DNA of 64,000 nt from a virus (Duplodnaviria; Heunggongvirae; Uroviricota; Caudoviricetes): the IMG/VR virus record IMGVR_UViG_3300045988_005753, one strand, 5' to 3'. The notes beneath the pieces are model-generated. The model was not told where the DNA came from. It made no database searches and saw only the letters and a program-made list of their open reading frames with translations. The translations under genes and the position numbers were made by a program. This document shows, piece by piece, positions 44,085 to 45,650 of the stretch; position 1 is the stretch's first letter, and every line of letters starts with the position of its first letter.

Positions 44085-44195
44085 AGATTTTTTATAAGGC
44101 TACTGCCATCCTTCCATACATTACCTAACCAAGCCGAACATCACACAACCAGACCGAGCCGCACCCCGCCTTATTAAAAGACCCTGTTTAAAGAC
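44085..44195. repeat. CA-rich (GT-rich on the minus strand) repeat element, copy 1, with core TTAAAAGACCCTGTTTAAAGACCTTTTAAAAAGG
   Basis: aligned by eye to copy 2 at 45330-45650. Confidence 0.6.
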
Positions 44196-44222
44196 CTTTT
44201 AAAAAGGAGCCTCCAAAGAGGC
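44196..44222 (-). terminator. rho-independent terminator after the 44235-44675 gene
   Basis: AGCCTC-TTTG-GAGGCT hairpin followed by a T-run on the minus strand. Confidence 0.5.
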
Positions 44223-44234
44223 TACCTAGTCAAC

Positions 44235-44675
44235 TTAGAAAGGTTTTCTACGTTGCTTGTTAATGTTAGCTTTCATAGCAGCTAAATGGTTTTGCTGTTC
44301 AATTAGTCGTGAACGTTCTTGATGGCTAAGTGCCATAGTGTTCACATTCTCAATTGCTTGAGTGGCTTGCTTTAAAGCTCGACCAATCTTACCAGACATT
44401 TTACGTTTTGCAATAGTTGCTTGATGTTTAGGCTCAACCACACGATAACCAACACCCATTGAAGCAACCAGATAAATCTTCTCTTCTTTAAGAAGCTTTT
44501 CAATAAACTTCTCAAGTCGGTTTAGACGTGTAAGTGCATAAGCCTTCATTTCATCTTCGTACTTAACAATGTCACCTTGATAAGTTGGCTTCACAATACC
44601 TAAGAAGGTATCCATCTCAGAGTGTGATACAGTGTCACCGTAACTAAACTTTGCTGCTAATGCTTTTGTATTCAT
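44235..44675 (-). CDS. hypothetical protein
   Basis: 146-aa ORF. Confidence 0.5.
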   Translation of the reverse strand: MNTKALAAKFSYGDTVSHSEMDTFLGIVKPTYQGDIVKYEDEMKAYALTRLNRLEKFIEKLLKEEKIYLVASMGVGYRVVEPKHQATIAKRKMSGKIGRALKQATQAIENVNTMALSHQERSRLIEQQNHLAAMKANINKQRRKPF

Positions 44676-44677
44676 AA

Positions 44678-45280
44678 TTAAACGTTACCTTCTGAAATAA
44701 CTTCTACAGAAAAACGACCAAAGCGTGGACGCCAATCACCTACACCACAAAGGTTACCAGCATTTTCCAGAACCATCAAGAGTTCCTCTTTGGTGATTTG
44801 CTCTTCATCGAACATCAAACCGAACTCTACAGACCAGTCACGGAAGATTGGACGGTAGCTCATAACTCGTGCTGTACCAATCTTAACAGACTTAGCATAG
44901 ATAAAGTCTGGATTCTTAGCGAGTTCTTGTGGGTTTGCTGGACAGTTTTTGATAGTCATTGGGAAGACTACATCTGTCAGCATAATGGCTCGGTCAATTA
45001 CCTTACCAAGTTTGTTGAGTTTTGCACCAGACTTGATACAAGCCTCAATCATCTCACCGTTCATAACAAAACCTAGCTGCTCATCGTAGTAACAAGAGGT
45101 TACCAGTTGGCTTTCTGCTAAGAGCGCATAGTCTTCGTCAGTCTTTTTACGTTTACTAGACAGAGACTTGTGATATTTTGTCAGAGGGTTTAACGGGTCT
45201 GACAGCGTATCAGCGTGGCTCAGGAAAGGACGAGTACCAGTGATTTTGATATTTAACAGTTTCATAGCATTTAGCTCCAC
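44678..45280 (-). CDS. hypothetical protein
   Basis: 200-aa ORF. Confidence 0.5.
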
Positions 45281-45329
45281 ACTTTAGTTGATTGTTAAGT
45301 TGTTTGTAAAGAACCCTCAATAGAAGACT

Positions 45330-45650
45330 CTTTAGAAACTTGGTAGATTTTTAACGTGGCTACTACCATCCACCCATACCATACCATACCAAACCTGACC
45401 AAATCTTGCCGCACCCAACCTGACCTCGCCTAACCTTACCACACCTCATTAAAAGACCCTTTTAAAGACCTTTTAAAAAGGTAAGTCTCATTTTAATGTA
45501 GCTGAGACTAACTACCCATACCTTACCGCACCGGACCTTACCGGACCGCACATCGCCGCACCAAACCAAACATCACATTACCTGACCTCACCGCGCCTTA
45601 CCATACCTCACTTAAAAACCCTCTTAGAAAGACTCTTAAGTGATGCTGGT
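45330..45650. repeat. CA-rich repeat element, copy 2 (two CA-rich arms flanking the same TTAAAAGACCC...TTTTAAAAAGG core and a hairpin)
   Basis: shares GGCTACT(G/A)CCATCC and the 34-bp core with copy 1. Confidence 0.6.

Follow-up and report, generated by a model that had tools for sequence, protein, structure and literature searches.

A pentamer-repeat region of a Felix O1-like phage is very probably a complete type II VIPR locus

The analysed stretch of 64,000 nucleotides of viral DNA (hereafter, the window) carries a repeat region that is very probably a complete type II Viral Interference Programmable Repeat (VIPR) locus of a Felix O1-like phage. The assignment to type II is made because the Vipr protein encoded there matches the chain of the SUSP1 protein, the residues reported to contact RNA and target are present with one exception, and the 146-aa product of the neighboring gene is vap1. 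The locus is of an already known kind, explained by preprints from 2026, and is a member of the characterised SUSP1 clade.

VIPR was described in two bioRxiv preprints (10.64898/2026.04.26.720920 and 10.64898/2026.04.26.720927, hereafter.720920 and.720927), neither of which is yet peer reviewed. They describe a VIPR system made up of vipr, which encodes a minimal RAMP-like protein, a vap accessory gene, and guide RNAs called vrRNAs. Membership is defined by a ~20-kDa RRM protein with a G-loop and a thumb, accompanied by vap1 in type II, and a vrRNA, encoded on the vipr strand in the intergenic DNA at the sides of the genes, is built from 9-16 tandem YNNGG repeats with conserved GGY and hypervariable NN and closes with a conserved 3' tail, a pseudoknot in the SUSP1 clade (.720920,.720927). 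For SUSP1, the preprints report vrRNAs of ~100 nt detected by sRNA-seq and co-purifying with Vipr, as well as cryo-EM structures in which each repeat is held by one protomer and the GGY is sequestered, while the NN dinucleotides recognise double-stranded DNA on either strand, with one base skipped per pair and no PAM (.720920,.720927). The system is described as a programmable transcriptional silencer, in which changing the guide redirects repression (.720920). The assays reported include RNP pull-down, in vitro binding, GFP repression and lambda defence, and the natural targets are said to lie mostly in satellite phage residing in E. coli chromosomes (.720920,.720927).

By its sequence, the window belongs to a Felix O1-like myovirus (Felixounavirus). 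A comparison of the 1.9-kb region with GenBank matched 231 phage records at 80-99% identity, nearly all of them from Felixounavirus and relatives. The minus strand carries every gene from 41.7 to 48 kb, and the elements of the locus follow one another along it: the ligase gene, a 62-aa ORF (o62), P1, a leader, array C and a hairpin-containing tail with a T-run; then a core, array B, its tail, vipr (195 aa), vap1 (146 aa) and a terminator-like hairpin; and finally a second core, array A, its tail and P2, which precedes the next gene (Table 1).

Table 1. Elements of the VIPR locus in the window, listed in the order of the minus strand
Feature	Position	Strand	Details
P1, sigma-70-type promoter TTGACA-16-TATACT	45676..45703	-	11/12 consensus matches; just downstream of the ligase/o62 genes; -10 element within the 5' arm of the hairpin GGTGAGTA...TACTCACC
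vrRNA-C leader	45613..45668	-	Includes AAGAGTCTTTCTAAGAGGGTTTTTAAG, a diverged copy of the core preceding arrays B and A
vrRNA-C repeat tract, 19 GGY-NN units	45518..45612	-	NN code: GA AT AA GC GA CA AA GA TT TT GC GA GC CC AA CC GC AA AT
vrRNA-C 3' tail, H-type pseudoknot, then T-run	45478..45517	-	GTAG:CTAC + AGTCTCA:TGAGACT
Core upstream of array B, TTTAAAAGGTCTTTAAAAGGGTCTTTTAATGA	45446..45477	-	Coding strand of the 34-bp core of the original prediction
vrRNA-B repeat tract, 14 GGY-NN units	45376..45445	-	NN code: GT AA TA GA CA TG GC AA TT CA TT AT AT AT
vrRNA-B 3' tail, pseudoknot	45336..45375	-	GTGG:CCAC + GGTAG:CTACC; includes the GGCTACTACCATCC motif
vipr, 195 aa, RAMP-like guide-RNA-binding protein	44678..45265	-	Match to PDB 36pp_D
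vap1, 146 aa, Vipr accessory protein	44235..44675	-	3 nt downstream of vipr
Terminator-like hairpin after vap1	44208..44223	-	AGCCTC-TTTG-GAGGCT + T-run
Core upstream of array A, CCTTTTTAAAAGGTCTTTAAACAGGGTCTTTTAATAA	44171..44207	-	
vrRNA-A repeat tract, 11 GGY-NN units	44116..44170	-	NN code: GG GC TC CT TG GA TC TT TA AA AT
vrRNA-A 3' tail, pseudoknot	44076..44115	-	AAGG:CCTT + GGCAG:CTGCC; includes the GGCTACTGCCATCC motif
P2, promoter-like TTGACA-17-TATTTT	44034..44062	-	For the next gene (43606-43989)

P1 is kept throughout the Felix-like loci, single-array ones among them, and probably drives the first vrRNA (vrRNA-C). The leader between P1 and array C may hold a promoter of its own, act as a 5' handle or be a precursor segment that is trimmed off. 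The core ahead of array B appears weakly promoter-like, with a TTAAAA-17-TTTAAT arrangement that ends just before the first repeat and falls below the criteria of the promoter scan. Judging from these elements, the 5' ends of the vrRNAs may arise either from P1, with trimming of the 60-nt leader, or from the promoter-like cores. P2 sits inside an inverted repeat (44035-44081) and forms the downstream edge of the VIPR block.

The original prediction, made from the letters of the window, described two copies of a CA-rich repeat with an identical 34-bp core flanking a two-gene cassette at 44085-45650. The GGCTACT(G/A)CCATCC motif that it named is indeed found in both regions, its only occurrences in the 64 kb being those at 44098 and 45358; the CA-rich stretch that it quoted, TACCATACCATACCAAACCTGACC, is present; and the repeats do bracket the ORFs at 44235-44675 and 44678-45280, both on the minus strand. 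The count of two has to be raised to three arrays (A, B and C), and the proposed span cut off the leader and promoter of array C, which extend to 45703. The cores share exact blocks of 12 and 21 nt, but they are not identical over 34 bp, being 34 nt long at A and 33 nt at B through a 1-nt indel. A hairpin terminating minus-strand transcription had been placed at each core: at core A a terminator-like stem does follow the 146-aa gene, whereas the structure at core B is not simply a terminator but the pseudoknotted 3' tail of the guide RNA upstream. The repeats had also been read as CA-rich on the plus strand, which is the wrong strand, and their 5-nt unit, GGY-NN on the coding strand, had been missed.

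The period of 5 nt is strict, with units reading NNACC on the plus strand and GGY-NN on the coding (minus) strand, and a 60-nt segment contains up to 11 of 12 in-phase CC dinucleotides, compared with a maximum of 7 in 200 window shuffles. All three pentamer arrays of the 64 kb lie on one strand within the VIPR locus; none was found elsewhere in the 64 kb or on the opposite strand. Over 1020 units from Felix-like loci, the sequence logo reads W, G (.89), G (.99), T (.82; C.10, A.02), N, such that the GGY positions are conserved (Y.92) and both NN positions are free. Repeats in the window consist of these pentamers and the 33/34-nt cores, with no CRISPR-Cas repeat-spacer array and no cas domains found in it. 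At gathering score, Rfam 15 gave 24 tRNA matches in the window and nothing within 44-46 kb. The papers on Felix O1 and wV8 and the comparative papers on Felixounavirus are silent on these repeats, which carry the bare label DR_4 in the wV8 record.

The tails that close the arrays of Felix-like loci are of two types, and each folds into an H-type pseudoknot. Internal tails have the stems GTAG:CTAC and AGTCTCA:TGAGACT, paired in 100% of cells, with three pairs altered on both sides in the variant AATCGGA:TYCGATT. The terminal type, with stems GTGG:CCAC and GGTAG:CTACC before vipr and AAGG:CCTT and GGCAG:CTGCC before P2, is paired in 98% of cells, with three compensated pairs between the B-type and A-type forms. 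Slid controls reach 24-46% pairing, and the covariation (3 + 3 pairs) stems from few independent events. Part of the terminal-type pseudoknot is complementary to the GGCTACT(G/A)CCATCC motif, whose G/A difference is half of a compensatory pair.

The 195-aa product of the cassette aligns over its entire length (residues 1-195 to 1-195) with PDB chain 36pp_D, "SUSP1 Vipr protein," with an E value of 8.5e-129. It is identical to the protein of the relative L014 at 192 of 195 positions (3 residues differ), and the window vap1 is identical at 145 of 146 positions (1 residue differs) to the product of the gene that follows vipr in L014. Nine of the ten published RNA- or target-contact residues are present in the window Vipr, namely H17, K33, E71, M72, R138, C173, D177, W178 and R179. 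At position 175, where the structure preprint names T175, both the window protein and that of L014 have V, and we therefore place the discrepancy in the text of the preprint, not in the window phage. Searches of Pfam, NCBIfam and PADLOC gave no match for either cassette protein, PHROGs returned only families of "unknown function" (phrog_4652 for Vipr), and vap1 had no informative domain or PDB match. Preprint.720920 describes vap1 as a predicted DNA-binding protein.

The association of the arrays with this protein extends well outside the Felix O1-like phages. A scan of IMG/VR for (GGTNN)6 returned at least 120 loci, reduced to 42 contigs with degenerate arrays after pure microsatellites were removed. 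Among these listed contigs, many bear batteries of 5-13 arrays of 10-19 units each, with an end motif specific to the contig. Among the matches listed, the G-rich strand is the coding strand for most flanking ORFs (203 versus 75), and a Vipr homologue lies within 2.5 kb of the arrays in 26 of the 42 unrelated contigs; every one of these homologues is encoded on the G-rich strand, most of them immediately upstream of the arrays. Since the homologue adjoins arrays in 26 of the 42 listed contigs, we regard the arrays and the 195-aa protein as one conserved module, a connection between repeats and flanked genes that the original prediction had left unmade. The 26/42 association emerged from the DNA pattern alone, without prior knowledge of VIPR.

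The guides of the Felix-like loci point to E. coli satellites. A BLAST comparison of the region with 5,426 complete E. coli genomes found vrRNA-like matches of ~90 nt in 147 chromosomes, in ~11-kb islands with recombinases, an HNH endonuclease and tape-measure and baseplate genes, inserted at wrbA (L153) or at a yecE/DUF72 gene (L154-L156). These islands fit the preprint's description of the satellite. One of the guides carried by satellites matches a REP-like element of the host, not another satellite. We scanned 65 unique NN strings from Felix-like loci against four islands (L153-L156) at a threshold of at least 80% NN match. With one base skipped, 37 of the 65 guides match at this level, 10 of them at 90% or more, compared with none of 65 at skip 0, none of 65 at skip 2, one of 65 at skip 3, and one at skip 1 when the NN order was shuffled. 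The published 1-nt-skip rule is thereby independently replicated.

All three guides of the window find sites in this set. For vrRNA-B, 26 of 28 positions match and the first 12 NN are perfect (at most 21 in 300 NN-order shuffles), where the tape-measure gene of the satellite has its ribosome-binding site and start codon (L156 17622-17663, L154 9803-9844); L153, the first satellite examined, has only a diverged match of 21/28. vrRNA-A reaches 19 of 22 at L155 (minus strand) 7619-7651, spanning the start of a hypothetical satellite gene, where 300 shuffles reach 18 at most. The 3' 11 NN of vrRNA-C match at 21 of 22 positions inside the tape-measure gene of the satellite (minus strand of L156, at 18414-18446, and of L155; maximum of the shuffles, 18), on the strand opposite to the gene and with the skipped base at codon position 3, whereas for guides B and A the skipped base is off the codon wobble position and both sites straddle gene starts. 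At full length (19 NN), vrRNA-C gives 23/38 on the four islands, which is not significant, and its 5' part may be aimed at a satellite variant other than those scanned; more generally, the best natural targets may lie beyond the four variants. There is no skip-1 self-target in the 64-kb window, and an exact scan of IMG/VR with two 10-NN segments of vrRNA-B gave 0 matches.

The window locus thus combines the VIPR gene, 9/10 contact residues, vap1, vrRNA arrays with tails, and NN targets; the 19-unit vrRNA-C exceeds the published range of 9-16 repeats and has a convincing target for its 3' 11 NN only. These same matches weigh against the proposal that the arrays are not guides and work instead by way of nucleic-acid structure or host factors. 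The composition of the arrays is extreme (G 43-47% and C 7-11% on the minus strand), GG tracts 3 nt apart could give two-tetrad quadruplexes, and P1 is directly upstream, such that one can picture a G-quadruplex or an R-loop on the G-rich non-template strand (e.g., an R-loop origin downstream of P1); Rho-loading (rut) sites on the antisense C-rich RNA, tandem RNA-polymerase pause sites, or a sponge that captures a TRAP-like, ring-shaped RNA-binding protein are further options, and arrays of ~12 units would suit the footprint of a ring or hexamer. We nevertheless consider this proposal extremely improbable. It leaves unexplained why hypervariable NN match foreign genes at a fixed 1-nt skip, as well as the linkage to one protein family and the solved Vipr-vrRNA structures; the absence of arrays from some relatives (L010, L012 and L022) speaks against an essential origin; and no plus-strand promoter reads into the arrays. 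In addition, NN reprogramming is reported to redirect repression in SUSP1 (.720920).

Several specific candidates were rejected along these lines. The informative NN positions and the Vipr association are unexplained by a Rho rut site on antisense RNA, by G-quadruplexes or an R-loop origin, by tandem G-10/Y-1/G+1 pause sites, by Chi-like sites, by pairing with tRNA CCA ends and by type III antitoxin-like repeats. The same holds for a CsrA sponge and for T7-type primase sites; moreover, GGA is avoided, A following GG in only 2% of units, and C after GGT is under-represented.

Comparison with relatives, 29 IMG/VR loci collected through the ligase gene, shows how readily the locus changes. As the original prediction had suggested checking, the cassette is variable: vipr-vap is present in some of the 29 loci and absent from others, and the number of arrays ranges from 0 to 6 per locus, with some arrays remaining where the cassette is gone. 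The make-up of two-array loci without vipr is exactly what recombination between the cores on either side of the cassette would be expected to leave. Among more distant relatives, three without arrays have a single promoter directly ahead of the next gene, while in others the whole block lies between a duplicated promoter. Arrays from phages with near-identical flanks cannot be aligned and yet retain the same pattern, the NN being hypervariable.

Such turnover invites the view that the repeats serve chiefly as substrates for recombination or are its scars, that is, direct repeats bounded by promoters and stem-loops that move a two-gene cassette into and out of the genome in the manner of PeSL elements, the arrays being functionless, decaying microsatellites. 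Cassette presence or absence, the vipr-less forms resembling a core-to-core product, the block between duplicated promoters and the varying array number all agree with it, but a decaying microsatellite would not hold GGY at 82-99% with random NN, and neither the restriction to one strand nor the compensatory changes in the pseudoknot tails would be explained. As a sole explanation it is contradicted by the NN strings that match satellite genes at exactly a 1-nt skip and by the co-occurrence of arrays with Vipr homologues in unrelated viruses, and we judge it very improbable. Recombination is an account of how the locus turns over, not of what the locus is.

The functional suggestions of the original prediction can be read in the same light. 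A recombination-mediated insertion agrees with the present/absent cassette and the vipr-less forms but is a secondary aspect, since the repeats work together with the cassette and are not mere scars. A structured 3' UTR is not supported. A small RNA and a protein-binding array, offered as alternatives, were both right in substance, the arrays being vrRNA genes and Vipr coating the vrRNA with one protomer per repeat (.720920,.720927).

For a type II VIPR locus, expression, processing and activity in the window phage are what we infer from the near-identical SUSP1 system. Each vrRNA would comprise a tract of 11-19 pentamers, with GGY fixed and NN free, and a conserved pseudoknotted tail of ~40 nt. 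As in SUSP1, Vipr protomers would assemble one per repeat and sequester each GGY, leaving the NN dinucleotides displayed as a gapped guide that would pair with double-stranded DNA reading (xNN)n, one base being skipped per pair. Pairing would create an R-loop-like triplex and block transcription, an effect that vap1 would enhance. The most likely role of the locus is the silencing, by the phage, of a satellite that would otherwise parasitise it.

The closest known system is the SUSP1 type II VIPR itself (PDB 36pp), which the window resembles in gene order, strand, GGY-NN vrRNAs flanking the genes and pseudoknot tails; the guides of both are aimed at the same E. coli satellite family (tape-measure and baseplate genes). 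The window genome differs in being a Felixounavirus and in having two guides upstream and one downstream of the genes, compared with one and three in SUSP1. Its NN codes also differ from those of L014, and one guide, at 19 units, is longer than the stated 9-16. According to the preprints, VIPR shares with class 1 CRISPR-Cas (Cas7-family RAMPs) an RRM/G-loop/thumb protein that polymerises on guide RNA, a periodic base flip-out and a conserved RNA handle that caps a variable guide (.720920,.720927). It departs from class 1 CRISPR-Cas in lacking CRISPR repeats, spacers, cas1/cas2 and adaptation. Its guide is non-contiguous, with 2/5 of the RNA bases reading 2/3 of the DNA bases, it recognises dsDNA without a PAM, and phages encode it against other mobile elements.

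Two other comparisons are instructive. TRAP, the trp RNA-binding attenuation protein of Bacillus, binds 11 (G/U)AG triplets spaced 2-3 nt apart as a closed ring and regulates its own operon by attenuation, with spacers that hold no information. Like Vipr, it is a protein oligomer that engages a conserved RNA triplet every ~5 nt and leaves the spacer bases free, an analogy that leads one to expect a protein partner for the arrays. Unlike in TRAP, the "spacers" of Vipr are the information and the complex binds DNA, and the two proteins have no relationship in sequence or fold. In T4-type phages, promoter-early stem-loop (PeSL) cassettes are small, variable gene cassettes bounded by repeated promoter/stem-loops, and no PeSL is known to encode a guide RNA. 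The vipr-vap cassette is similarly gained and lost between direct repeats, within a block between two TTGACA promoters, but its repeats are functional RNA genes tied to the cassette's own protein.

In GenBank, 118 Ounavirinae-type records encode Vipr, compared with 231 that have the array/leader region. About half of the Felix O1-like genomes carry at least one vrRNA gene with intact tails and have vipr nowhere in the genome; Felix O1 itself is vipr-less. Among the loci examined, guides of vipr-less phages match satellites in 6 of 9 cases, no less often than those of vipr-bearing phages (31 of 56). It is possible, though we hold it only tentatively and think it rather unlikely, that orphan guides are used in trans, loaded by Vipr that comes from a co-infecting relative or from some other element, or that they act without Vipr. 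If true, guide and effector would be separable, exchangeable parts within the phage population. Guides without an effector extend beyond the available text of the published preprints.

VIPR is a newly reported form of RNA-guided DNA recognition, in which a gapped code is read by a CRISPR-RAMP-like protein in the conflict between phages and satellites. The window is not a new kind of system; what it does provide is concrete predicted targets for three Felixounavirus guides, and such loci can be flagged by a reader from raw sequence alone. Phages of this genus serve in phage typing and biocontrol, and how well they perform could depend on satellite interference.

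Guide arrays are found among Felix O1-like genomes well beyond those that carry vipr, the gene of the guide-binding protein. The array and leader region is present in 231 GenBank records, compared with 118 for Vipr by tblastn; "orphan" vrRNA arrays, with no tblastn-detectable vipr, occur in about half of Felix O1-like genomes. In the related IMG/VR loci, the orphan guides retain intact tails, and they match E. coli satellites at an equal rate to guides of vipr-bearing phages (at least 80% of the NN code in 6 of 9 and 31 of 56, respectively). The available passages of the VIPR preprints (10.64898/2026.04.26.720920 and 10.64898/2026.04.26.720927) make no mention of such guides.

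Features of the phage window, related loci, metagenomic contigs and E. coli satellite islands
Feature	Location	Strand	Remarks
Conserved core	window 45446-45477 and 44171-44207; leader 45613-45668		directly 5' of each repeat tract
vrRNA-C repeat tract	window 45518-45612		19 repeat units
Vipr residue 175 codon	window 44741-44743
62-aa ORF	window 45700-45888	minus	phrog_5428, unknown function; between ligase gene and P1
tRNA gene cluster	window 12371-17578	+	26 by ARAGORN; 24 reach Rfam gathering score
Orphan arrays	Felix-like loci L005, L007, L016, L025, L028, L030, L031, L032, ~7100-7700		downstream of ligase
Array batteries (examples)	IMG/VR contigs L068 2217-3406; L056 4600-5047; L077 2093-2614; L054 3331-5318; L120 2251-3267; L065; L126
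Satellite island	E. coli stretch L153 18300-29800; others in L154-L156
Satellite-borne vrRNA	L156 12035-12099	minus	13 units + phage-type tail
Satellite vrRNA match site	L156 7475-7513; also L155 1303-1341, L154 243-281

Some GenBank records extend this distribution in name to other hosts. The Vipr encoded in "Staphylococcus phage SA1" (GU169904.1, 91679-92263) is 100% identical to that of the window, and two "Campylobacter" records hold the same DNA as the window's VIPR region; the most likely explanation is a chimeric or wrongly labelled Felix O1-like sequence in each case.

Among the matches listed from the IMG/VR pattern scan (L033-L152), unrelated metagenomic viral contigs carry batteries of 5-13 tandem GGY-NN arrays, some with 50-70 units, well beyond the published 9-16, and each array is closed by a contig-specific motif, such as GGTAAGGAATGGTTT, GGTAAGGCTA, GGTTTGGCAG or GGGTGCCAATGGCAC. 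Within the available stretches, no Vipr homologue was found in 16 of the 42 array contigs listed. A second neighbour family of ~160-176 aa, present in at least seven array contigs, may be a vap type.

In the window itself, vrRNA-C exceeds the 9-16 units of published VIPR guides, as given in the preprint passages (10.64898/2026.04.26.720920,.720927). Its convincing satellite match is limited to the 3' 11 NN, while the 5' 10 NN match another satellite site at just 16/20, and vrRNA-C may represent either two fused guides or one guide with an unused 5' extension. The core has a weakly sigma-70-like layout (TTAAAA or TTAAGA, 17 nt, TTTAAT or TTTAAG), which would place a predicted transcription start at the first repeat; the preprint passages do not treat a part for the core in vrRNA 5'-end formation. 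The structure preprint (10.64898/2026.04.26.720920 /.720927) lists T175 in the pyrimidine pocket in the part available, whereas residue 175 is V in Vipr of both the window and the related IMG/VR locus L014 (G-loop LCGVGDWR), probably reflecting a slip or shifted numbering in that preprint. The 62-aa product, rich in Cys/His and Lys/Arg, is encoded in only some relatives (L007, L011, L014, L019, L020, L030), its position being taken by unrelated short hydrophobic ORFs in L017, L022 and L028. Felix O1 and wV8 are reported to have 22-23 tRNA genes, fewer than the cluster in the window.

The satellite islands occupy two chromosomal insertion sites, wrbA and the yecE/DUF72 gene, and encode serine-type recombinases, an HNH endonuclease, tape-measure and baseplate proteins; in L154, an IS2 insertion splits the tape-measure gene. 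One island bears a vrRNA of its own, whose best 1-nt-skip match scores 23/26, against a maximum of 22 for NN-order shuffles (n = 300). This match lies outside the satellites and the phage window, in a REP-like palindromic element of the host chromosome between torZ and cmoB; it may be due to chance, or the satellite vrRNA may be a guide directed at a repeated host element.
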